11,283 bases of DNA from a virus. Taxonomy: Duplodnaviria; Heunggongvirae; Uroviricota; Caudoviricetes. The DNA lies in IMG/VR virus record IMGVR_UViG_2675903654_000023; one strand, written 5' to 3'. Both the position numbers and the translations under genes were made by a program. Shown one piece after another: positions 1 to 9,582 of this stretch (positions are counted from its first letter, which is position 1; each line of letters starts with the position of its first letter). A model generated the notes under the pieces. The model saw only the letters and a list, made by a program, of their open reading frames with translations. It made no database searches and had not been told where the DNA came from.

Positions 1-516
1 ATGAAATTTAAAAAATGTCTTCTGCCTGTGGCAATGTTAGCGTCATTCACTCTGGCAGGATGCCAGTCAAATGCTGACGATCATGCCGCCGATGTTTATC
101 AAACCGATCAACTGAATACCAAACAAGAAACTAAAACCGTTAATATTATTTCCATTCTTCCCGCAAAAGTTGCCGTAGACAACTCCCAAAATAAACGGAA
201 CGCACAAGCCTTCGGCGCGCTTATTGGCGCAGTCGCTGGCGGTGTTATCGGCCACAACGTCGGTTCTGGCAGCAATTCCGGAACGACGGCAGGGGCAGTT
301 GGCGGCGGAGCTGTAGGCGCGGCAGTGGGTTCTATGGTGAATGATAAAACCTTAGTGGAAGGTGTTTCTTTAACATATAAGGAAGGCACCAAAGTGTATA
401 CCTCTACCCAGGTGGGTAAAGAGTGCCAGTTTACGACAGGTTTAGCCGTTGTTATTACCACAACGTATAACGAAACGCGTATTCAGCCAAATACTAAATG
501 TCCTGAAAAGAGCTAA
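1..516 (+). CDS. Outer-membrane lipoprotein with a glycine-zipper core (YcfJ / 17-kDa-antigen-like)
   Basis: ORF from the track. The N-terminus has a signal peptide ending in a lipobox (LAGC). The central segment is Gly/Ala-rich (GAVAGGVIGH...GGGAVGAAVG), typical of glycine-zipper lipoproteins. The ATG is at window position 1, so no upstream RBS can be inspected. Confidence 0.65.
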   Translation: MKFKKCLLPVAMLASFTLAGCQSNADDHAADVYQTDQLNTKQETKTVNIISILPAKVAVDNSQNKRNAQAFGALIGAVAGGVIGHNVGSGSNSGTTAGAVGGGAVGAAVGSMVNDKTLVEGVSLTYKEGTKVYTSTQVGKECQFTTGLAVVITTTYNETRIQPNTKCPEKS

Positions 517-531
517 TAATCAGGAGGAGTC

Positions 532-1071
532 ATGAAGAAAGTTTTTCTTTGCGCCATCTTGGCCTCCTTAAGCTATCCGGCTATCGCCTCATCATTGCAG
601 GATCAACTCTCTGCTGTAGCAGAAGCTGAACAGCAAGGTAAAAATGAAGAGCAAAGGCAGCATGACGAATGGGTCGCGGAGCGCAACAGGGAAATCCAGC
701 AAGAGAAGCAACGTCGCGCAAATGCCCAGGCCGCCGCTAACAAAAGAGCGGCAACGGCAGCGGCAAATAAGAAAGCTCGTCAGGATAAACTGGACGCCGA
801 AGCCTCTGCGGACAAAAAACGCGATCAAAGTTATGAAGATGAGCTACGCAGCTTAGAGATTCAGAAACAAAAACTGGCGCTGGCAAAAGAAGAAGCCCGC
901 GTTAAGCGAGAAAACGAATTTATCGATCAGGAACTGAAGCACAAAGCTGCGCAAACCGATGTGGTGCAATCTGAAGCTGACGCCAACAGAAATATGACTG
1001 AAGGCGGTCGCGATCTGATGAAAAGCGTGGGCAAAGCAGAAGAGAACAAATCGGACAGCTGGTTTAATTAA
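532..1071 (+). CDS. Secreted/periplasmic highly charged protein of unknown function
   Basis: Strong RBS (AGGAGG) 5-6 nt upstream of the ATG at 532. N-terminal signal peptide (MKKVFLCAILASLSYPAIASS) followed by a Lys/Glu/Gln/Ala-rich low-complexity body. Starts 16 nt after the upstream lipoprotein gene, so the two are probably one operon. Confidence 0.6.
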   Translation: MKKVFLCAILASLSYPAIASSLQDQLSAVAEAEQQGKNEEQRQHDEWVAERNREIQQEKQRRANAQAAANKRAATAAANKKARQDKLDAEASADKKRDQSYEDELRSLEIQKQKLALAKEEARVKRENEFIDQELKHKAAQTDVVQSEADANRNMTEGGRDLMKSVGKAEENKSDSWFN

Positions 1072-1290: not shown

Positions 1291-1773
1291 CTATCTGGTC
1301 AGGGTGTCATACTGTTTTTCGCAGACTCTTCCGGCTTCGGCTGCCCGGTCAGCATACTCTGCCAGTTGTCTATTTCTCTCGAGAGATTTGCTGAACACGT
1401 CGGCAAGCAAAACTCCGGTATCTGCGGCTGACGCCCCAGCGCCGACAATGGCGTTATATTGCCTGAGCTGCTCACGGATGGCAACGAGCTGTCGCTGCAA
1501 CCTGCCAGCGCGAGCGGCAGCATCAAGAGCATCACTGCGCGCCTGATCGATTCTCTGCTGCGCTTCACGTTCATTGGTCACTTTCTCCTGTTCGTAGTAC
1601 TGACGAACTTTGTCTTCTTCGGCTTTGCGGTCTTCTTCCGCCTGCGCATACCCGGCATCGTACTGGCGGCTGCCGTGTATATTCCAGGCAACCACTCCGA
1701 CGATGAACAGAGCAGCAAGCATCAACACGATAAGCAGCTGTTTCCAATATGATTTTACGAATGTCAGGATCAT
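1291..1773 (-). CDS. Rz-like i-spanin (inner-membrane lysis protein)
   Basis: N-terminal transmembrane segment ([18 protein letters not shown]) followed by a charged, coiled-coil-like periplasmic domain. Its ATG overlaps the endolysin stop in an ATGA junction at 1770-1773. It is the last gene of the lysis cassette. Confidence 0.75.
1299..1574 (-). CDS. Rz1-like o-spanin lipoprotein embedded in a different frame inside Rz
   Basis: Lies entirely within the Rz gene in another frame. Encodes a signal peptide with lipobox LALAGC and a Pro/Ser-containing mature part. The longest ORF starts at 1574; an internal ATG at 1532 ([12 protein letters not shown]...) is the more likely start. Confidence 0.55.
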   Translation of the reverse strand: MNVKRSRESIRRAVMLLMLPLALAGCSDSSLPSVSSSGNITPLSALGRQPQIPEFCLPTCSANLSREIDNWQSMLTGQPKPEESAKNSMTP

Positions 1774-2399
1774 ACCGTCAGCACCTTACTGGCAGTGATG
1801 TATCGCGCTCGCCGGTCGTCTATGCCGTTCCTGCCACCATTGATAATCAGAGTTACACGAGCAATATCGCCGGTATACTTCATGCAGCCTTTGCCGGAGA
1901 AGAACCACGCCGCGCTACGAGCCGCGTATTCGTCCTGCGCCAGCAGTTCAGGATTCTCCAGCAGGTCAACTTTCAGACCGTTTCCACAGTCACGATAGTT
2001 ATTCAAACCGGTAATCTGGATAAGCCCGCGCCCACGGTAATTCCAGCCATCGCCGGGAGCATTGTTACCCATGCGTTTGCTGTATACCAGATTTGCGATC
2101 GCGCGCTGGCGCTCAAGTGGCAATGGTGGTTCACCAGCACGGCGACCCAGTGCATTAGCCTGCCCCTGAGTGAGACGCCCAGCCCGAACGAAGTTAGCTA
2201 GACCGCTGACACTGTAGTTGAAATTCTCCTGCAACCGGGTGAAACCACCAGACTCATGCCCGACCTGAGCAATAAACATTGCCTGATCTTCGGTTTTGCT
2301 GATACCAAACTCTTTCATCGCAGAAGTTATATGCGAGAACCAGCGTGCGGCCAACGCCTCGCTAATACCAGCAGCTCGCTGGAATTGTTTAATCTCCAT
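1770..2399 (-). CDS. Phage endolysin, glycoside hydrolase family 19 (chitinase-like lysozyme)
   Basis: The protein carries motifs recalled from GH19 phage endolysins ([24 protein letters not shown]). RBS GAGG lies 7 nt upstream of the ATG at 2399. It overlaps the upstream membrane-protein gene by 11 nt and the downstream Rz gene by 4 nt. Confidence 0.85.
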
Positions 2400-2697
2400 G
2401 TTTAGACCTCGTTATTTTAAAAATCTGCACAACGTTACCGCGCGTTTTAATAACCGCAGCAAGCATGACAGCGTTGATAATGACCTCAGATAAATCCACA
2501 GCCATTGGCGTGCGTAACCAGATTGCATAAACGACACGAACAGGAATACTGGCCGCAGCAACAATCAGGAAATAAGCAATCCACCCACCCCATCTTCGGT
2601 GTTGAGATCCGTTACGCTGGAAAGTGACAACGCGAATTGCTATGCCAGTACAAATAACTGCATTGGTGATAATTAAAAAAAGGTCATGCGTTACCAT
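2389..2697 (-). CDS. Holin-like small membrane protein (three predicted transmembrane segments, charged C-terminus)
   Basis: Three hydrophobic segments and a basic C-terminal tail ([19 protein letters not shown]). Sits immediately upstream of the endolysin and overlaps it. A GGAG-type RBS precedes the ATG at 2697. Confidence 0.55.
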
Positions 2698-3097
2698 CGT
2701 CTTTTCTCCCCGGAATTAACTCGCGTGGATTATCGGAACGGTGATAGAGCCATATACCAATACGAACAGCGACAATTGCCGACACGAACGCACCTGCAGA
2801 AAATACAATCCCTTTCTCGAATGAGTCCTGCGTGATGGTTGGAATCAGGCTAGCTATGCCGATAAGAATTGATGCTGCCGGTTTGTAGAAAAGAAGGCCG
2901 CAGAGAAAGCTGAGCATCGACAGAAGAACACGACGACGGATTGGGTATTCTACTGCAGAGGTAACAAAAATTACCGCACCAGCCAAAGATCCCAAAGCGA
3001 CCTCTGGAGGAACTCCTGCTATCACCGCAGCAAGAGAACTAACGCTAAGCCACTGATTTAATGATTCACTTGTTAGACCAGCAGACATTGCAACCAC
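2684..3097 (-). CDS. Lysis-associated polytopic membrane protein (holin or antiholin candidate)
   Basis: Four to five hydrophobic segments and a charged C-terminus; it is the first gene of the lysis cassette. The longest ORF begins at a GTG (3097-3095); an ATG three codons downstream (3088-3086) has a GGTGG Shine-Dalgarno 5 nt upstream and is the more likely start. Confidence 0.5.
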   Translation of the reverse strand: MVAMSAGLTSESLNQWLSVSSLAAVIAGVPPEVALGSLAGAVIFVTSAVEYPIRRRVLLSMLSFLCGLLFYKPAASILIGIASLIPTITQDSFEKGIVFSAGAFVSAIVAVRIGIWLYHRSDNPRELIPGRKDDGNA

Positions 3098-3191
3098 CGT
3101 TTACTGTTCATGACACCCCCTTAGTTGAGTGGGTATATCATACACAATAAACCGTAAACGGATAATCAACCTAAGATTAGCCCGAACAAAG

Positions 3192-3206
3192 TTACCTTAT
3201 AGGTAA
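3192..3206. promoter_or_regulatory. Palindromic operator-like site TTACC-N5-GGTAA (copy 1 of 4)
   Basis: Seen directly: gTTACCttataGGTAAa. It lies in the AT-rich intergenic island between the lysis cassette (minus strand) and a small plus-strand ORF. Confidence 0.45.
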
Positions 3207-3271
3207 AACTCTTACTGTTGAATGTTAATTTATATAGGTTTCCCTTTCGGATGTTAAAGAGTGGGAATCGC

Positions 3272-3442
3272 ATGAACACAATAACTAAATTTGGGCACTG
3301 GTTTATCATGGCGATGGGGATTGCATGCCTGTTAATGCTAATAACAGGCATTTCCTCTGCGAAAGTTTTTGTTGGTGTTGATATCGCAATGATAGCGATA
3401 TGGCTATGGGATGAATATTCCCACTGGAAGCACAAGCAATAG
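3272..3442 (+). CDS. Hypothetical small membrane protein (56 aa, two hydrophobic segments)
   Basis: Internal ATG of track ORF 3218-3442. A purine-rich stretch (AGAGTGGGAA) precedes the ATG. Lies in an AT-rich island convergent with the tailspike gene. Coding status is uncertain. Confidence 0.3.
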   Translation: MNTITKFGHWFIMAMGIACLLMLITGISSAKVFVGVDIAMIAIWLWDEYSHWKHKQ

Positions 3443-5518
3443 CTATTTATTGGAAAATAAATTCTCAAGCTTGCTAATTCTGGCTTCCAGTTTCTGCCGC
3501 TCTCTCCGCTGATATGCAGCTTCCAGCCAGAGACATTGATCAGCACGAATGCCCCATCGGTTTCCCGCTGGCGTAACCAGCAGCCTGCCCTCAGGCTTTA
3601 CAATCTCTGTCCAGGCTTCTTTCTTGACGATTTGCTGCATTGATACATCCAAAATAGAAGAATACTCGGCAGGATGCTCAACCACTTCCTCAGGGATAAT
3701 CTCGTACTGGTCTTGCCATTCATCGTAACAGAGCAGGCCAAATCGAGTCCCGTCGATTCCTTTCGACTCGAATGCCTCTTTAACCTGTTGTGCAATAACG
3801 CCAAAATGCCAACGTGCGCCAGCCTGCCCCTTTTCTTTAATAGAATTCAGCCACTGAAAAGCGATTATTGAAACTTCCCCCCACGCGTCAAGTATTGCAT
3901 TTTCATCAACAGCCATGAATTTCGATAGCTCTGATACTTTAATCGGCTGTGATTTTTCACGGCCGTCTGAAGTATTAATTGAACCAGTGCCTGCAAAAAC
4001 GGTGCTCCAGCGGTTTACGATATCACCCAAAGGTGTTGAGTTATCATTACCAGGGGTTAACGCGCGCTGGGAGACTGCGGCAGGCTTAATCTGGAGACGC
4101 ACCTCATTTCCGGATACAAATTTTAAACTAGTGTCGCCTGTTGTACCTAAATAAGTCCCGTTTACATCAGTTGTCACAAAGCCGTGAAAGTTACCGGTCG
4201 CCCCGCCGCGCCAGCTTATGGCGTAAGTTAATTGCGACGGATCTATGCCAAATCCTGCAGCGCCATTCTGGAACATCTTGCCAAGGTTCGGAGCATAATA
4301 GCCATAGCCATTCATCTGTCGGACATTTATAGCTACGTTCGCTCCCCGAGCCGCTTTTAAATGCTCAATATAAACGCCGCTTTGTTCACCTACAATGCCA
4401 GTACTTCCAAGCAAAACATCATTGATATATACCCCTCTGCGGTCGAGTATCGTCCCGGTTCCATTATGTGATGGGGATGAATAAAATCCCTGCATGTTTT
4501 CCAGAGTTCCGCTTCCGGCGTAATTAATACGATCTTGAAAGCTGAAAGCGTGATTTTGAGCGTGGCCGCCAGTTATGATTAGCGTTGAATCAAAAGCTCC
4601 ATATCCGCCATAGTCGGAGGCCTGATTAATAACTGTCTTATCTGCGAAGGCGTGGCAGTTCGTTGGCGCGTTATCGATACGACGAGCCACGTTTATGGCG
4701 TCTCTTAGCGAATCAGGCGACGGCCATGTAGCGCCAGCCACGCCGACTGGCTGGTCGCCAACTATAAGATTTCCGTACGTGGTTGAGATGCGTAAACCGC
4801 CTGTCATTGTGTCGCCGCGCTTGTCGACTGCGTTACCTACCCTTTTGACTCCATCAGGCTGAGCCAGGGTTATCAGTACGTCAGAGGCGCTACCGCTTTG
4901 TGGAACAACAGTAATTGGATTTCCTGATGAATCGAAAGCCAATAGCTGATTTGCTCGCATCGACACGCCAGGAACTGGGCCTACATAACTCTCCGGAACC
5001 CGTAGCGTGCGGTTGAAGTTAACGTTGTTAAGCGTATCAACATAATTTTTAGTGGCTGCATCTTGGGGGGTTGAAGGATCGCGTAAGTTTCTGATGTAAT
5101 TGTTAAGCGCATCATAATAATTTGCCACGAATGACGGCTTACGCAGCGCCAAGCTAAACCAACTTCGAACCTGCTGGATCAGCATCGTTAGCTTATCAAA
5201 AGCATCCTCATGCACTTCTGCAAAGAACTTACCCTGATTACGCAAATCAGTTTCCTGCGTAACCGGGAGCTCTCGTGATATAGAAATCTGATAACCGCTA
5301 ACCAATGCCTTCGACAGAATTATATTGCCACCATTGTATCCTCCAGCCCCAGTAACTATGTAATCAGTGTCAAGAATCAGCTCTGTGATGTTCTCGTTCA
5401 GGTCAACAACCTGCACTACTAAATCAGATTTCTGGAAAATCCTGAAGGTATAAGGGAATGTCGTTGTAACACCGTTACCGGTGTATTCGTTGTGGTCAAC
5501 TTCGGTTGAGACCGTCAT
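3443..5518 (-). CDS. Tailspike / tail fibre protein with a C-terminal intramolecular chaperone (peptidase S74-like) domain
   Basis: 691 aa. The N-terminal roughly 120 aa resemble the particle-binding N-domain of podovirus tail fibres/tailspikes (YTGNGVTTTFPYTF...). The central region is Gly/Asn/Thr-rich, consistent with a beta-helix receptor-binding or depolymerase domain. The C-terminal roughly 175 aa start with an S-D-x-R-x-K motif (SDGREK, about residue 517, nt about 3968-3970), the hallmark of self-cleaving chaperone domains. RBS GGAG lies 7 nt upstream of the ATG at 5518. Confidence 0.85.
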   Translation of the reverse strand: MTVSTEVDHNEYTGNGVTTTFPYTFRIFQKSDLVVQVVDLNENITELILDTDYIVTGAGGYNGGNIILSKALVSGYQISISRELPVTQETDLRNQGKFFAEVHEDAFDKLTMLIQQVRSWFSLALRKPSFVANYYDALNNYIRNLRDPSTPQDAATKNYVDTLNNVNFNRTLRVPESYVGPVPGVSMRANQLLAFDSSGNPITVVPQSGSASDVLITLAQPDGVKRVGNAVDKRGDTMTGGLRISTTYGNLIVGDQPVGVAGATWPSPDSLRDAINVARRIDNAPTNCHAFADKTVINQASDYGGYGAFDSTLIITGGHAQNHAFSFQDRINYAGSGTLENMQGFYSSPSHNGTGTILDRRGVYINDVLLGSTGIVGEQSGVYIEHLKAARGANVAINVRQMNGYGYYAPNLGKMFQNGAAGFGIDPSQLTYAISWRGGATGNFHGFVTTDVNGTYLGTTGDTSLKFVSGNEVRLQIKPAAVSQRALTPGNDNSTPLGDIVNRWSTVFAGTGSINTSDGREKSQPIKVSELSKFMAVDENAILDAWGEVSIIAFQWLNSIKEKGQAGARWHFGVIAQQVKEAFESKGIDGTRFGLLCYDEWQDQYEIIPEEVVEHPAEYSSILDVSMQQIVKKEAWTEIVKPEGRLLVTPAGNRWGIRADQCLWLEAAYQRRERQKLEARISKLENLFSNK

Positions 5519-5674
5519 GTTAAATCTCCGGATAGTCGCAGCACCCGTTGCGCCGCATATCCGGTTATTCTATTACCTGAAAAACCACATATGGATATAT
5601 AACCCATAAATACGAACAGATATTACCTTTCAGGTGATTCGCAAAACGTGCTGGATAGCAAACAAATTATTTGA

Positions 5675-5694: not shown

Positions 5695-5713
5695 ATTGCA
5701 TGGAGAAGATAAG

Positions 5714-5971
5714 ATGCAGCAGTATCACTATCCACTGGAAGACGGATTTACCGAAAGGATTCACACGCCGGGAGGCGTCAGGTCACTGGTGGAGGGATCG
5801 CACTTGATGAAATTACTCCGGGATCTCGATAAGGATGGATTTAATGTCGATGGCCCACTTGCCGAACTGACTGCACTGATTAACTACGTCACCAGCTCAC
5901 AGATGTCTATGCGGGATCTGCAAACACATCTCGACTATTGTGCCGAACAATTACGAAAACAAACCAGATAA
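5714..5971 (+). CDS. Small stand-alone antirepressor C-domain protein (85 aa), probably SOS-controlled
   Basis: RBS GGAG (5702-5705) precedes the ATG at 5714. The protein aligns without gaps over about 72 residues with the shared C-terminal domain of the two larger antirepressor-like proteins, at roughly 45-50% identity by eye (IHTPGGV...LMKLL...DG..V.G..AELT...RDLQTH..Y). The LexA box lies immediately upstream. Confidence 0.6.
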   Translation: MQQYHYPLEDGFTERIHTPGGVRSLVEGSHLMKLLRDLDKDGFNVDGPLAELTALINYVTSSQMSMRDLQTHLDYCAEQLRKQTR

Positions 5972-5974
5972 GGT

Positions 5975-6003
5975 TTGCAATTACCAAGTGGAGTGCTTAT
6001 ATT
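5975..6003 (+). promoter_or_regulatory. Sigma70-type promoter of the plus-arm sRNA-like element
   Basis: Seen directly: -35 TTGCAA (5975-5980), 17-nt spacer, -10 TATATT (5998-6003). It begins 4 nt after the stop codon of the 85-aa gene. Confidence 0.5.
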
Positions 6004-6017
6004 TACCTTTGCGGTAA
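6003..6017. promoter_or_regulatory. Palindromic operator-like site TTACC-N5-GGTAA (copy 2 of 4), overlapping the -10/+1 of the sRNA promoter
   Basis: Seen directly: ATTTACCtttgcGGTAAAT, an extended 7-5-7 palindrome. Confidence 0.5.
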
Positions 6018-6130
6018 ATTTACATCGCACTCCTCTTGTGCCATAGTAATCGGGCACTGGCAAAATCCAGTGCCGGGATTGGCGTCCCGGATTACTACAG
6101 AGGCACATATGCCGCATAAGCGGTTTTTTT
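6010..6130 (+). ncRNA. Candidate structured small RNA / terminated leader (plus arm)
   Basis: Bounded by the promoter above and an intrinsic terminator (GCCGC-ATAA-GCGG followed by seven T, about 6111-6130). The core (about 6004-6097) is more than 95% identical to the inverted copy at 8993-9086. It contains stable hairpins (GGCACTGG-CAAAAT-CCAGTGCC and CCGGGA-TTGGCG-TCCCGG). No conserved ORF spans it. Confidence 0.5.
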
Positions 6131-6225
6131 ATGTGTAAAACGCACCTATTCTATGGTGGGCTGTGTGGGGGCACCGAAAGGTGCGCCGGGTCCTTTGTAG
6201 CCGGTTACGCCAACTCTGCACAGTT

Positions 6226-6256
6226 CACCACCAACCGATTGGCGTCGGTAGTGGTG
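6226..6256 (+). promoter_or_regulatory. Leader hairpin upstream of the Bro-N antirepressor RBS, loop UUGGCG
   Basis: Seen directly: CACCACC-A-ACCGA-TTGGCG-TCGGT-A-GTGGTG. The loop is identical to the hairpin-2 loop of the plus-arm sRNA element. The hairpin ends about 27 nt before the ATG at 6284. Confidence 0.45.
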
Positions 6257-6283
6257 ATTAACCTAACTACAAAGGTGATCACT

Positions 6284-6970
6284 ATGACTGCTAACGTAAC
6301 CCCATCTGTTTTTCATTTTGAATCAGAAGCAACCATTCGAGCCATTGTTATTGATGGAAATCCTTGGTTTGTTGCCAAAGACGTTATTAAAGCTCTTCAA
6401 CTGACAAACCCCACTATGTCAATAAAATCTCTTGATGATGATGAAAGGGCTAAATTTAACTTAGGCCGTCAAGGCGAAACCAATATTATCAACGAGTCAG
6501 GCCTCTACACACTGATCCTCCGCTGCCGCGACGCAGTGACACCAGGCACTATCCCCTACCGCTTTCGTAAATGGGTTACAGGTGAGGTTCTTCCTCAGAT
6601 CCGCCGCACCGGAAGTTACATTAAAAACTCGCTCCCGCAGGAAGAACGCATAAAGATGGTTGCCGACCAGGTAGCCAACGCCACGGCGTCAGCAGTGATG
6701 AAGGCGATGAAGATAGAGAACAAAACCTACAGCGCCCCGCTGAAGCCAGGCTACCGCAGCCTGATTCACTCGCCGTCTGGTGTTCTCGGCCTGACGGAGA
6801 ACTCACTGCTGATGAATCTGCTGAACCAGTTACAGGAAGACGGGCACGACGTATCGGGCGCGGCGGCGGAGCTGACCACCATGTTCTGCTACATCGTCGG
6901 TGTGAGCAAATGCCTGCGTGATATCCAGACGCACGCGGAGTACATCAACGACAAGGCTGGGTTCTTCTGA
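6284..6970 (+). CDS. Antirepressor-like protein: N-terminal Bro-N domain plus shared C-terminal domain
   Basis: Internal ATG of track ORF 6131-6970, with RBS AGGTGA 5 nt upstream. The N-terminus has Bro-N motifs (IRAIVIDGNPWFVAKDV...GLYTLILRCR...FRKWVTGEVLPQIRRTG). The C-terminal roughly 80 aa are identical to those of the convergent gene at 8144-8800. Confidence 0.8.
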   Translation: MTANVTPSVFHFESEATIRAIVIDGNPWFVAKDVIKALQLTNPTMSIKSLDDDERAKFNLGRQGETNIINESGLYTLILRCRDAVTPGTIPYRFRKWVTGEVLPQIRRTGSYIKNSLPQEERIKMVADQVANATASAVMKAMKIENKTYSAPLKPGYRSLIHSPSGVLGLTENSLLMNLLNQLQEDGHDVSGAAAELTTMFCYIVGVSKCLRDIQTHAEYINDKAGFF

Positions 6971-6993: not shown

Positions 6994-7042
6994 CTTTAAA
7001 TAATTCTGTACAGATTGCAGACTGTGGGTGAATAGCGTACTA

Positions 7043-7057
7043 TTACCTCAAGGGTAA
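7043..7057. promoter_or_regulatory. Palindromic operator-like site TTACC-N5-GGTAA (copy 3 of 4), upstream of the central module
   Basis: Seen directly: aTTACCtcaagGGTAAa. It is followed by a second inverted repeat (ACGGATT-N14-AATCCGT, 7059-7086) that overlaps a candidate promoter. Confidence 0.45.
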
Positions 7058-7063
7058 ACGGAT

Positions 7064-7093
7064 TGGTTTCATTTTTATTAATCCGTGTAATGA
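7064..7093 (+). promoter_or_regulatory. Candidate promoter of the central two-gene module
   Basis: Possible -35 TTGGTT (7064-7069), 18-nt spacer, -10 TAATGA (7088-7093). This is a weak call from reading the sequence only. Confidence 0.3.
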
Positions 7094-7117
7094 ACTTATG
7101 AGATATGAGGTAATGTC

Positions 7118-7297
7118 ATGCGAAACGAAAAATTGCAGATGCGTAGAGCGCAAGCTGCCGCAAGACGTTCTTTCAATGGAAGCGTAGAGTACGTAAAAGT
7201 TACTATGACAAAAGATCACGCAAGTCGCGTATCCCGCGCTTTCTTTGATTCTCGTAACAATAAGGAAAATTATGAGTTCGTCTGCGTCGCAGAATGA
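7118..7297 (+). CDS. Small basic protein (59 aa), candidate antitoxin or regulator of the central module
   Basis: Absent from the ORF track, presumably below its length cut-off; hand-translated as MRNEKLQMRRAQAAARRSFNGSVEYVKVTMTKDHASRVSRAFFDSRNNKENYEFVCVAE. Strong RBS GAGG 7 nt upstream of the ATG at 7118. Its 3' end overlaps the start of the next gene by 26 nt in a different frame. Confidence 0.45.
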   Translation: MRNEKLQMRRAQAAARRSFNGSVEYVKVTMTKDHASRVSRAFFDSRNNKENYEFVCVAE

Positions 7298-7817
7298 TAA
7301 AAATCAAGTTGTCAGATATAAGGGTCGAGTGTTGCATACGCAAAATTTCTCGGCCCTTTGTGCATCTGATCTTGAGCTGAAGAAAGTATCTGATGCCTTT
7401 ACCCAGTATTGGAAAACGGGATACCATCCATCTCTTGGTAAAGATGCTGCATTTGCTCGTCCGACAGAAATGCTTAAACTAAATGTCAGGCATACTCATG
7501 TCGATAACCAAGACTATATTCCAGAAGATAGTGATAAAAAACACACTGGTAAAAAATCATCTTGGGATGCATGGAAAAATATAGCGTCTGTACAAGTAAA
7601 ATGCATACCAACAAGTGATTGCTTTTTAGTTTATTCGGTAAATCACAATCGTGATGCGCTGGTTATGTTTTTTGTTGACGCAGATGCTCACAACATAACT
7701 GAGCAAGAAGAGTTTAAAGAGGAAGCAATCACTATCAGTTATCAATTCTTTGAGAAAACAAAAACAGAACCAATGCCTTTAGAAGAAGATCTTTTTTCTG
7801 ATAAATGGAAGGAATAG
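7272..7817 (+). CDS. Hypothetical protein (181 aa), candidate toxin; weak YafO-like resemblance
   Basis: Internal ATG of track ORF 7245-7817, with RBS AAGGA 5 nt upstream. AT-rich coding sequence. Segments (GKDAAF...LNVRHTHV...CFLVYSV...ALVMFFVDADAH) resemble motifs I recall from YafO-family toxins; this is from memory and unverified. An intrinsic terminator follows directly. Confidence 0.55.
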   Translation: MSSSASQNDKNQVVRYKGRVLHTQNFSALCASDLELKKVSDAFTQYWKTGYHPSLGKDAAFARPTEMLKLNVRHTHVDNQDYIPEDSDKKHTGKKSSWDAWKNIASVQVKCIPTSDCFLVYSVNHNRDALVMFFVDADAHNITEQEEFKEEAITISYQFFEKTKTEPMPLEEDLFSDKWKE

Positions 7818-7837
7818 CCCGCAGCGCGGGCTTTTTT
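7817..7837 (+). terminator. Intrinsic terminator of the central module
   Basis: Seen directly: stem GCCCGC (7817-7822), loop AGC, stem GCGGGC (7826-7831), then six T (7832-7837). It overlaps the stop codon. Confidence 0.7.
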
Positions 7838-7909
7838 GTGGACGAAACAAAAGTCAGTGCTACACTCATTGACGCCACATTGAGGTGGCTTATAGATGGA
7901 AATTTCACA

Positions 7910-8071
7910 ATGAAAAAAGCATTTGCTGCACTGTTCGTTTTGTTGTCTCTGGTAGCTTCAACTCAGGCCTTTGCCGGTCGTTGTCAGCACGACAGCGATA
8001 CTGCCGCTGACGGCTCCCGCTGCGGTGGGCGTTCTGCGGATTCCCGCCCGGGCGGCGGTGGCATTCGTTAA
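7910..8071 (+). CDS. Hypothetical small secreted peptide (53 aa precursor, about 31 aa mature, two Cys), possibly leaderless
   Basis: Internal ATG of track ORF 7805-8071. Signal peptide MKKAFAALFVLLSLVASTQAFA followed by a Gly/Arg/Asp-rich tail. A candidate promoter (TTGACG 7869-7874, TATAGA 7891-7896) would place the transcript start only a few nt before the ATG. No convincing Shine-Dalgarno. Coding status is uncertain. Confidence 0.3.
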   Translation: MKKAFAALFVLLSLVASTQAFAGRCQHDSDTAADGSRCGGRSADSRPGGGGIR

Positions 8072-8094
8072 AAACAAGGCCGCGAAAGCGGCCT
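8070..8094 (-). terminator. Candidate intrinsic terminator downstream of the AntA-type antirepressor gene
   Basis: Plus strand AGGCCGC-GAAA-GCGGCCT (8077-8094). On the minus strand this hairpin is followed by TGTTTTT. A 12-bp perfect palindrome GTGACATGTCAC (8095-8106) lies adjacent. Confidence 0.4.
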
Positions 8095-8120
8095 GTGACA
8101 TGTCACGCTAGTTTCGTTTT

Positions 8121-8385
8121 GCACGTCCCTGTGCCGCCGCCCGTCAGAAGAACCCAGCCTTGTCGTTGATGTACTCCGCGTGCGTCTGGATATCACGCAG
8201 GCATTTGCTCACACCGACGATGTAGCAGAACATGGTGGTCAGCTCCGCCGCCGCGCCCGATACGTCGTGCCCGTCTTCCTGTAACTGGTTCAGCAGATTC
8301 ATCAGCAGTGAGTTCTCCGTCAGGCCGAGAACACCAGACGGCGAGTGAATCAAACTGCGGTAGCCGGGCTTCAGTGGGGCGCTGT
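8121..8385. repeat. Inner inverted repeat, right arm (partner 6730-6993)
   Basis: Reverse complement is near-identical to 6763-6993; see the left-arm entry. Confidence 0.85.
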
Positions 8386-8800
8386 ATTCTTTTTTGTCTT
8401 CCAGCTTGATCGCCTCCATAATGGCGGGCATGAAGCCTGACAAGACCTTCTCCACTTTTGTTTCTTGTTGTCTTAAACGTTTCTCGCATTCAATGAAGTA
8501 GCGTCGTACCTGACGACCTTTTTCGTTACGCTCGACCATCGCCAGCTCTTTGGCTGTATCAAGGGTGAGGTGGTACTCTTTGCGGTTGTGGCCGCCTCTA
8601 CCAGATGTTTGCTTTCCCAAATTGGAAAGCAAAATATAGTCTTGATTTTCAATGAATTCGTATTCTGATATGCGATTTGTAATCCATGCTGCAAACACCT
8701 TTTTAACACCTAAAAAAGCGTGCAGATCGCGGGCATTACAAAGTAGGGCTGTTTCGTTAGATATAGTGCCGTTGAATACGGGGATGAGTTGAGCGTTCAT
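8144..8800 (-). CDS. Antirepressor-like protein: N-terminal AntA-type domain plus shared C-terminal domain
   Basis: The N-terminus matches the AntA/AntB antirepressor N-domain pattern (LIPVFNGT...[10 protein letters not shown]...W...EYEF...[27 protein letters not shown]). The C-terminal roughly 80 aa are identical to those of the 6284-6970 product. RBS GGAG 8 nt upstream of the ATG at 8800. Confidence 0.85.
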
Positions 8801-8828
8801 GATGGCGTCTCCACTTAGCGAATTACAT

Positions 8829-8859
8829 CACCACCGCTGAGACCAATCAGATGGTGGTG
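8829..8859 (-). promoter_or_regulatory. Leader hairpin upstream of the AntA-type antirepressor RBS, loop UUGGUC
   Basis: Minus-strand reading: CACCACC-AT-CTGA-TTGGTC-TCAG-C-GGTGGTG. The loop is identical to the hairpin-2 loop of the minus-arm sRNA element, and the stem differs from the plus-arm leader by compensatory changes. Confidence 0.45.
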
Positions 8860-8958
8860 AACTGAACGGAGTTGGTCTTACCGGCCTAAGTGGTACCGGC
8901 GTCCTTTCGGACCCCCATTCAGCCCACCATAATTCTGGCATGACTGTGCTATACGCAT

Positions 8959-9080
8959 AAAAAAAACCACGTCTGGCGTGGTATGCGCCACTTAGTAATC
9001 CGGGAGACCAATCCCGGCACTGGATTTTGCCAGTGCATGATTACTATGGCACAAGAGGAGTGCGATGTAAATTTACCGCA
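8959..9080 (-). ncRNA. Candidate structured small RNA / terminated leader (minus arm)
   Basis: Inverted copy of the 6010-6130 element. Its own intrinsic terminator on the minus strand is ACCACG-CCAGA-CGTGGT followed by eight T (plus coordinates about 8959-8982), different in sequence from the plus-arm terminator. Hairpin-2 reads CCGGGA-TTGGTC-TCCCGG. Confidence 0.5.
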
Positions 9081-9087
9081 AAGGTAA
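9073..9087. promoter_or_regulatory. Palindromic operator-like site TTACC-N5-GGTAA (copy 4 of 4), overlapping the -10/+1 of the minus-arm sRNA promoter
   Basis: Seen directly: TTTACCgcaaaGGTAA. It is part of the outer inverted repeat. Confidence 0.5.
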
Positions 9088-9116
9088 TGATAAGCGCTAA
9101 GAAATATTAAAATCAA
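9087..9116 (-). promoter_or_regulatory. Sigma70-type promoter of the minus-arm sRNA-like element
   Basis: Minus-strand reading: -35 TTGATT (plus 9111-9116), 18-nt spacer, -10 TATCAT (plus 9087-9092). Sequence upstream of the -10 is not homologous to the plus-arm promoter, yet a promoter is retained. Confidence 0.45.
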
Positions 9117-9234
9117 CCATATTTGGTTAATGCGTATAAAAGAGCCAGCAGCGAGAAATTGTGCCGCGACGTAAAATAACGAGCATCTGCTGGCTTACAA
9201 CCAGCGATGTTTCAAATTTGTCACTATTATCAAC

Positions 9235-9582
9235 GTGCCATTCCACGGCGCAGAGCTTTATGTTGTCAATCACAACGGCGAACCGTATACCCCAATGAAA
9301 CCTATCGTTGAGGGAATGGGGCTAGACTGGAAATCTCAACATAAGAAGATTTCTCAACGCTTCTCGAAGGGTATGGTGGAAATCACCATACCTTCTGCCG
9401 GTGGGGTGCAAGCCATGATTTGTATGGCTTTACGAAAATTGGCAGCTTGGTTGAACAGCATCAGCCCTAACAAAGTCCGCCCTGAAATCCGCGAAAGTAT
9501 TGAAACATCAACCGTATCGATATCGACACGGTTGATTATGACGGTAACTTATTTCCGTGTGTCCTATTTCTCCCGCCACTAA
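9235..9582 (+). pseudogene. Probable remnant of an antirepressor N-terminal (P22_AR_N-like) domain gene
   Basis: The track ORF starts at a GTG with no RBS. Residues about 8-85 (LYVVNHNGEPYTPMKPIVEGMGLDWKSQHKKISQRF...LRKLAAWLNSISPNKVRPEIRE) resemble antirepressor N-terminal domains as I recall them. The last roughly 30 residues look like out-of-frame read-through. It ends back-to-back with the convergent 98-aa gene. Confidence 0.35.

Follow-up and report, generated by a model that had tools for sequence, protein, structure and literature searches.

The island and its small gene

The DNA analysed here is a stretch of 11,283 nucleotides from a tailed virus (Caudoviricetes; IMG/VR virus record IMGVR_UViG_2675903654_000023), which we call the window. 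In megablast searches the region matches podoviruses of the epsilon15/phiV10 type (Uetakevirus). Our subject is the gap, or island, of 354 bp (3089-3442) between its lysis genes and its tailspike gene. The island carries a small gene for a protein with two predicted membrane helices, a palindrome resembling phage repressor sites, and a conserved leader upstream of the lysis genes (Table 1). A sequence-only reading of the window had described the island as AT-rich, with an operator-like palindrome, a possible two-pass membrane open reading frame (ORF) and the character of a moron insertion point. That reading did not contain the tie of the small gene to the tailspike, the mosaic of backbone and cassette within the island, or the leader hairpin at 3094-3157.

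The left edge of the gap is set by the start of the holin-like gene, which is the ATG at 3088 according to the PGAP call in a sister prophage (99.7% identical), while the ORF listing stretches the gene to a GTG at 3097; on the right, the gap meets the end of the tailspike ORF at 3443. The GC content of positions 3098-3442 is 0.391, against 0.469 for the whole window, and is equally low in 5.2% of equal-sized windows, with a minimum of 0.339 near 7466. The gap is AT-rich yet not exceptional, and the earlier description holds in a moderate form. The island recurs at 99.4-99.7% identity in three complete E. coli chromosomes; in E. coli 2015C-4498 the same layout forms a prophage of about 40 kb between yfgI and guaA.

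The small gene is well supported. Its product has two hydrophobic segments, which AlphaFold2 models as helices at residues 3-25 and 31-55 (mean pLDDT 77). The ORF has exactly 56 codons in all six close homologous loci. Pairwise ratios of nonsynonymous to synonymous substitution (dN/dS) lie between 0.06 and 0.21, the variable columns are distributed 24/13/39 over the first, second and third codon positions, and the other frames contain stops. The three E. coli genomes with the island all preserve the ORF uninterrupted, although PGAP calls no gene there. By these measures the ORF is under purifying selection, and we regard it as almost certainly a real accessory gene. Both the small two-pass membrane ORF and its conservation in relatives, the check that the sequence-only reading had proposed, are thereby borne out. 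Longer versions of 63 residues (from an in-frame ATG at 3251) or 74 residues were discarded, as the N-terminal extension is unconserved and only the 56-codon start is kept. An antisense ORF of 126 residues (3166-3546) was likewise rejected; it overlaps the 3' end of the tailspike gene, and its frame has stops in three of six homologues.

Relatives of the protein are few and escape the usual family libraries. Pfam, PHROG and NCBIfam hold no family for the small protein or for six of its distant relatives. A word-indexed search of 5.8 billion proteins brought up only four relatives. When 1.84 billion representative proteins were searched by profile, eight matched in total; contig scans added further loci in Franconibacter pulveris, a Pseudescherichia genome and two metagenomic viral contigs. 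A tblastn search with three family members found none in 50,697 GenBank phage records, although its low-complexity filter may mask weak matches, and the best hit of the AlphaFold2 model in a BFVD fold search (E 1.7) is meaningless for a helical hairpin. Distant members of the family are down to 22-48% identity. The family signature consists of R13, G16, TG-x-S, D37, W44 and E48; the R13M exchange of the window protein also occurs in a sister genome, and a variant with M13/E14 exists too. No holin family signature matches the small protein, unlike its neighbours (Phage_holin_8, Phage_holin_3_7), and in every other locus the small gene lies by the tailspike and not by lysis genes.

The association with the tailspike is consistent. 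In 11 of 13 distinct settings, in temperate phages, the small gene is convergent with a tailspike gene; its stop abuts or overlaps the tailspike stop in the six close loci and lies 16-212 bp from it in four more distant members. In the locus that we number L016 it lies directly upstream of an AT3 acyltransferase gene, and this gene and a small one separate it from the tailspike; in L022 an ORF of 82 residues intervenes, and the contig of L021 ends too soon for a judgement. AT3 genes adjoin the small gene in L008, L015, L016 and L021, gtrABC lies near it in L005 and L018, and in the other loci it stands alone. In the window, an imperfect hairpin spans the two abutting stops (-19.6 kcal/mol, z -2.8 on the plus strand; -18.1 kcal/mol, z -2.3 on the minus strand); it is unconserved in L012. 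As a separate observation, one relative (P0008) has the two-helix module fused to a soluble N-terminal domain (residues 1-60; about 58 residues, EKLYxxGW...RDxNGNY); this domain forms a separate tailspike-adjacent gene in L016 (1807-1983) and has no family match.

Homology junctions show how the island was assembled. Residues 1-232 of the tailspike are 75% identical to phiV10, and the similarity then stops. For residues 218-691, in contrast, the identity is 91% with the tailspike of a Franconibacter prophage and 60-64% with the other four tailspikes, whose N-terminal domains differ in type (60% for L005). On the other side, epsilon15 and phiV10 share the backbone up to a point just past the palindrome, and the similarity among the small-gene loci starts at a -35-like element, TTGAA or TTGAT, about 55 nt upstream of the ATG. 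Because of these junctions on the tailspike and palindrome sides, we take the exchanged cassette to be about 3213-4867, a unit made up of the small gene and the tailspike segment for receptor binding and chaperone, and the backbone to be about 3089-3207. The identities of small proteins and of tailspike receptor-binding parts correlate weakly (r 0.25), so that strict co-divergence of the two is unsupported.

The place into which the cassette was inserted is familiar. Of the eight relatives examined, seven have O-antigen conversion genes between the holin-like gene and the tailspike gene. This interval holds gp21 (alpha-polymerase inhibitor, 66 residues, two membrane helices) and gp22 (beta polymerase) in epsilon15, the O-acetyltransferase gene oac in phiV10, an acyltransferase gene in Tyrion, gtrA and an acyltransferase gene in SPN1S, gtrABC in BUCT554 and an AT3 acyltransferase gene in TL-2011b; in the eighth relative, a Klebsiella phage, there is only a 50-residue hypothetical gene. 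By comparison with these phages, we identify the island as the slot in which a temperate podovirus of the epsilon15/phiV10 type, integrated beside E. coli yfgI, carries its accessory (serotype-conversion) genes. Among 5426 complete E. coli genomes, 253 have the backbone segment with the holin-like gene and its leader, and only 3 have the present island with the small gene. The designation as a moron insertion point was thus correct, and the slot itself was already known. The cargo varies by presence and absence among collinear relatives and is horizontally exchanged, the cassette being common to Franconibacter, Pseudescherichia and other prophages. As for a promoter and terminator of its own, the -35-like element is kept in six loci, the -10 of the window is poor, the junction hairpin is weak and strict scans are negative. 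Slot, operator and leader hairpin are already known or predicted in this phage group; the small-protein family is the new part.

Table 1. Features in and around the island, with positions in the window
Feature	Position	Strand	Remarks
yfgH and yfgI (host)	1-1071		
Rz/Rz1	1291-1773	-	
GH19 endolysin	1770-2399	-	
Holin	2389-2697	-	
Holin-like gene	2684-3088	-	
Predicted upstream ORF MNSKRWLQCLLV, 12 codons	3073-3111	-	Strong ribosome-binding site AAGGGGG; overlaps the holin-like start (3088) out of frame
Leader hairpin, 27 bp	3094-3157	-	RNAalifold on 8 Uetakeviruses, -31.6 kcal/mol
CCGTTTACGGTTT, copy of motif CCWTATNTGGTTT	3149-3161	-	Three mismatches to the search pattern; spotted by alignment
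Proposed weak lysis promoter	3162-3190	-	Relaxed scan; -35 TTTGTT 3190-3185, 17-nt spacer, -10 GATTAT 3167-3162, start ~3155
Putative Rep operator TTACC-N5-GGTAA, TTACCTTATAGGTAA	3192-3206		Between the divergent lysis and cargo units
-35-like TTGAAT of the small-gene cassette	3218-3223	+	TTGAA/TTGAT ~50-55 nt upstream of the ATG in six close homologues
Gene MNTITKFGHWFIMAMGIACLLMLITGISSAKVFVGVDIAMIAIWLWDEYSHWKHKQ, predicted 56-residue two-helix inner-membrane protein	3272-3442	+	ATG 3272, TAG 3442, 56 codons
Imperfect hairpin over the abutting stops	3425-3489		TAG 3440-3442 (+), CTA 3443-3445 (-); possible weak two-way terminator, tentative
Tailspike, 691 residues	3443-5518	-	Beyond the gap
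Tailspike receptor-binding and chaperone part, residues 218-691	3443-4867	-	Peptidase_S74 domain

Probable operator, proposed promoters and lysis leader

The palindrome of the island is an exact copy and is one of a set. The window holds four exact copies and one with a single mismatch (the others at 5623, 6003, 7043 and 9073), where 0.21 would be expected; this is an enrichment of about 24-fold, and none of 200 shuffles reached five. All copies lie between ORFs or annotated genes. The GenBank record of epsilon15 marks seven sites as 'repressor; lysogeny', all of which have the core TTACC-N5-GGTAA and most of which read ATTACC-N5-GGTAAT; a further exact copy at 24704 of epsilon15, homologous to the island site, is absent from the annotation of that record. 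In the sister prophage L014, palindromes stand between a cro-like gene and a helix-turn-helix (HTH) repressor gene (33495, 33543) and just past the repressor gene (34255, 34317), with other copies before the replication genes, inside the small-terminase gene, beside a portal-adjacent gene and before the tailspike and accessory genes. The L014 repressor has 43% identity with that of epsilon15 and matches the structure of SPC32H Rep (5D50, E 4e-42). Rep reportedly acts as a tetramer on palindromic sites and is dismantled by an antirepressor (PMC9638917).

In an alignment of eight phages, the palindrome occupies the same columns in epsilon15, phiV10, BUCT554, Tyrion and SPN1S, and thus, with the window, in all six phages whose accessory genes (the cargo) lie on the strand opposite to the lysis genes. 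It is not found in the aligned TL-2011b or Klebsiella phage, where the homology breaks earlier, the leader is kept and the cargo lies on the lysis strand. As its core matches the epsilon15 repressor sites, its copies flank the L014 repressor and its position is conserved, the palindrome is very probably an operator of the prophage Rep protein, which would bind at 3192-3206. The sequence-only reading was thus well founded in calling it operator-like. With the SPC32H/epsilon15-type Rep system the phage lineage of the window and L014 shares the core ATTACC-N5-GGTAAT, a homologous repressor and the presence of sites at many units besides the immunity region. It differs in that the island site stands singly between divergent units, whereas the repressor-flanking sites come in groups of two or three. 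The copy near 7043 shows a further peculiarity when compared with the near-identical sister prophage L004/L014, in that its position is shifted, its spacer sequence differs, and an Arc-family gene lies there in the sister prophage but not in the window.

Two other operators of the window offer a template for a promoter. Rfam matches identify isrK/C4 antisense-RNA units at 6054-6235 (plus strand) and 9036-8850 (minus strand), each upstream of a gene of BRO-N/antirepressor type, in the layout of a P1-type immI; inside the island Rfam found no match. Both units have the same architecture: a Rep operator (6003-6017, 9073-9087), 1 nt, a -35 element TTTACA, 17 nt, CATAGT, and 7 nt to the 5' end of the RNA, which puts the operator centre at -44. 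The lysis side of the island repeats this layout, with the operator (3206-3192), one base, TTTGTT, 17 nt and GATTAT. By this analogy we infer a promoter of the lysis cassette that abuts the operator. On the cargo side, the right half of the operator forms an extended -10 element, TGnTAnnAT, in five relatives, and one operator may govern back-to-back promoters. The hexamer TATGAT (3142-3137; TATAAT in phiV10) was considered as the lysis -10 and dropped, since it sits in the 5' arm of the conserved hairpin described below; the lysis start would therefore lie upstream of 3157.

A short motif accompanies these promoters. In several units of the window, epsilon15 and L014, Rep operators are followed after 28-31 nt, toward the transcription unit, by CCWTATNTGGTTT. 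The sites of this motif are 3149-3161 (-), 5582-5594 (-), 5961-5973 (-) and 9117-9129 (+) in the window, 19939 and 24750 in L013, and 31169-31181 in L014. In the island it begins directly after the proposed -10, and it may be a start-region mark of Rep-controlled promoters.

The transcript that would start here is predicted to open with the leader hairpin. For the sequence of the window alone, the hairpin has a folding energy of -27.5 kcal/mol (z -2.3), against -20.7 kcal/mol for the opposite strand, and its stem contains several G.U pairs. In the eight phages 96.7% of the alignment cells are paired, as compared with 36-56% when the partners are slid. Three translation signals fall in the 3' arm, namely the AAGGGGG (3122-3116) and the AUG (at 3111) of the upstream ORF, and GGUGG as the ribosome-binding site that serves the holin-like gene. 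All eight phages keep the leader that precedes this gene, whatever lies on its far side, and also the ATG of the upstream ORF and its AAGGGGG; through this predicted ORF, translation of the first lysis gene might be coupled or controlled. The epsilon15 record labels the homologous stretch 'RNaseIII, mRNA processing'. Leader hairpins processed by RNase III are found in other phage mRNAs, for example in the lambda N leader and the T7 early mRNAs. The present hairpin resembles these in its long, imperfect, G.U-rich stem of about 27 bp and in its location in a 5' leader with ribosome-binding sites, and RNase III may cleave here as well.

A model for the island and its rivals

Overall, with moderate confidence, we consider the island to be best explained as a mosaic of a Rep-controlled lysis control region and an exchanged cassette of tailspike and conversion factor. 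In the prophage, Rep bound to the single 15-bp operator would keep the lysis unit off. The inferred weak sigma-70-like promoter on the lysis side would abut this operator, and its transcript would begin with the 27-bp hairpin, whose presumed role is to bury the ribosome-binding sites of both the 12-codon ORF and the first lysis gene. Once repression is lifted, the hairpin would have to open or be cleaved by RNase III for the lysis genes to be translated. The small gene, expressed from a promoter-like element of its own and stop-to-stop convergent with the tailspike gene, would make a two-helix inner-membrane protein. This protein would most likely serve lysogenic conversion or superinfection exclusion. 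It might attach to an enzyme of the inner membrane that makes or modifies O-antigen (Wzy, Wzx, Wzz or an AT3 acyltransferase), and binding would alter the receptor used by the linked tailspike and shield the lysogen from phages that use this receptor, in functional analogy to epsilon15 gp21. The O-antigen function is proposed because of the position in the slot, the recurrent AT3 and Gtr neighbours, the co-transfer with the receptor-binding module and the two-helix membrane fold. That the small protein is a prophage-expressed peptide modulating such an enzyme for the protection of the lysogen is a tentative assignment, to which we give somewhat less than an even chance.

Several observations weigh against this model. 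For the small protein, the proposed function rests on position and neighbours, and there is no similarity to annotated families. Relatives of the protein accompany different types of tailspike enzyme, which speaks against one narrowly serotype-specific target. The near-invariant Arg13 is Met (ATG, 3308-3310) in the window protein, and where five homologues have a TAnnnT -10 element after a 17-nt spacer, the window has TTCCCT. The extended -10 on the cargo side is degraded to AGgTAAAAC and is probably dead in the window. Together with the R13M exchange, the two poor -10 elements could mean that the allele of the window is weakly expressed or impaired. For the control region, a strict scan of 2950-3650 on both strands for sigma-70 promoters and terminators found nothing. 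The sequence-only reading had placed any promoter of the lysis cassette in the island; the weak operator-abutting candidate keeps this plausible by analogy, but the strict scan gives it no backing. The repressor gene itself lies outside the window, and an operator centred about 44 nt upstream of the start could activate instead of repress. Covariation in the hairpin is thin: a single pair shows a compensatory change, and shuffling attains the observed score in 35 of 500 cases.

The negative scan leads to a different view of the control region, according to which the island offers the lysis cassette no promoter, read-through from the late (tailspike) transcript runs antisense across the small gene and transcribes the cassette, and the Rep site controls the cargo promoter only. 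This view gains from the absence of a consensus promoter or terminator between the tailspike and lysis genes in the strict scan, from the weakness and poor conservation of the junction hairpin, and from the five relatives in which the operator overlaps a cargo-facing extended -10. We count it as a serious contender but consider it unlikely, because a terminator is annotated after the epsilon15 tailspike gene, so that there at least the lysis genes need their own start, and because the leader is conserved in all eight phages and the geometry of operator and hexamers equals that of the isrK promoters. The two phages that have their cargo on the lysis strand, without the operator yet with the leader, are neutral in this respect.

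For the small protein, the principal rival to a modulator of O-antigen enzymes is a superinfection exclusion factor that, as P22 SieA does, blocks the delivery of DNA across the inner membrane, and that leaves O-antigen synthesis untouched. With P22 SieA, a membrane protein that a prophage expresses for exclusion is already on record (PMC10883804). The present protein is a small, prophage-encoded protein of the inner membrane, and its gene stands beside the genes for the virion tip. About half of the settings, moreover, lack a nearby O-antigen enzyme gene (the window, L012, L017 and L022/L023), and the several tailspike enzyme types that accompany the family fit a target that is not serotype-specific. 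However, the carriers have no common ejection machinery, as they include at least the siphovirus-like L008 with a GpJ-type tip as well as P22-like and epsilon15-like podoviruses, and the operonic position directly upstream of AT3 in L016 and L021 suggests glycan modification. We judge exclusion at the level of DNA delivery to be distinctly unlikely.

The AT3 neighbours could also be taken more literally, the small protein then being an accessory subunit of an AT3 O-acetyltransferase and, in the window, a partnerless and perhaps decaying orphan. Genes with an Acyl_transf_3 domain do adjoin it in L008, L015, L016 and L021, and the Met in place of Arg13, the poor -10 and the lack of an AT3 gene in the slot would all suit an orphan. 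Yet L005, L009, L011 and L012, which have no adjacent AT3 gene, keep 56 intact codons with dN/dS values of 0.1-0.2 (a chromosomal AT3 partner being possible), and decay agrees poorly with an ORF that is intact in all three carrier E. coli genomes; this makes the subunit reading quite improbable. Finally, one could take the ORF for an open frame that arose by chance, the palindrome for an accidental or structural repeat and the island for a plain spacer. The missing PGAP call in the three complete genomes, the lack of a match in the family libraries and the empty tblastn search could be cited for this view, but it is hardly credible in view of the equal length in six diverged loci, the low dN/dS, the variation at 39 of 56 third positions against 13 second positions, the stops in the other frames, and a palindrome that is about 24-fold enriched and coincides with annotated repressor sites.

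To place the proposed O-antigen modulator among known systems, epsilon15 is the natural reference. That phage stops the alpha polymerase of its host and brings its own beta polymerase, and superinfection is thereby prevented (reviewed in PMC7380047). Like the gene of gp21, the small gene occupies the slot between lysis and tailspike genes on the opposite strand, its start codon follows the same Rep operator at a distance of some tens of bases, and it encodes a small protein (56 versus 66 residues) with two membrane helices. The two proteins are, however, unrelated by profile comparison (hhalign probability 0.07%), and gp21 matches phrog_32492, whereas the window protein does not. The 354-bp gap contains no partner polymerase gene or other ORF. 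In addition, the present family goes with tailspike genes in phages of several types, a behaviour for which gp21 offers no known parallel. The AT3 and Gtr conversion genes (phiV10 Oac, the Tyrion and SPN1S acyltransferases, BUCT554 GtrABC) share the identical slot and stand beside the small-protein family elsewhere, but they encode multi-pass enzymes of 300-650 residues with recognised domains, in contrast to a 56-residue hairpin that has no catalytic domain.

Two further prophage proteins invite comparison. The Iap protein of Pseudomonas phage D3 is a prophage membrane protein that protects the lysogen from superinfection (cited in PMC12373910). With P22 SieA it belongs among the prophage-encoded, small or medium-sized inner-membrane proteins that alter or protect the cell surface, and we liken the small protein to both by description. 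D3 Iap is shorter and has a single helix, and P22 SieA is much larger. Neither is known to have its gene linked to a tailspike 3' end.

Phages that bind O-antigen often alter this antigen in their lysogens, and the known agents are large enzymes (Gtr, AT3, Wzy) and very few small inhibitors. A small membrane protein that is widespread, unannotated and a constant companion of tailspikes would, if the proposed function is correct, be a new player in serotype conversion and phage exclusion. This would bear on serotyping, on the host range of phages used in therapy, and on the annotation of prophage accessory genes that pipelines miss. Going further, the 56-residue protein could found a new tailspike-linked family of conversion or exclusion factors, in which temperate phages of several morphotypes swap, as one cassette, a receptor-binding enzyme and a small inner-membrane factor that masks or alters the same receptor in the lysogen. 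A single unit would then pass on both host range and self-immunity, but we consider this extension somewhat unlikely. The control region, with one repressor site between a lysis operon and an accessory gene, is a compact and testable case.

Other features of the window

Host and prophage DNA meet at 1072-1290, in the stretch that separates yfgI from the Rz gene; the integrase of the sister genome is found at the far end, beside guaA, and the attB site has been placed at the 3' end of guaA in the paper on ZX5 (PMC9782041). Within the Rz (DUF2514) gene there is an Rz1-type ORF (1299-1574, minus strand) with the lipoprotein box LALAGCSD, and the same arrangement is annotated in epsilon15 and phiV10.

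The accessory region at about 7000-9500, between the tailspike gene and a gp17-like gene, is unlike that of the near-identical sister prophage L004/L014. This part of the window and its surroundings contain large inverted duplications, 5992-6097/8993-9098, 6184-6258/8827-8901 and 6715-6993/8121-8399, which are 93%, 73% and 96% complementary, respectively. The antirepressor-like proteins encoded at 6131-6970 (plus strand) and 8144-8800 (minus strand) have an identical C-terminal stretch of about 90 residues, and a gp19-like ORF (5696-5971) seems to bear a similar C-terminal motif.

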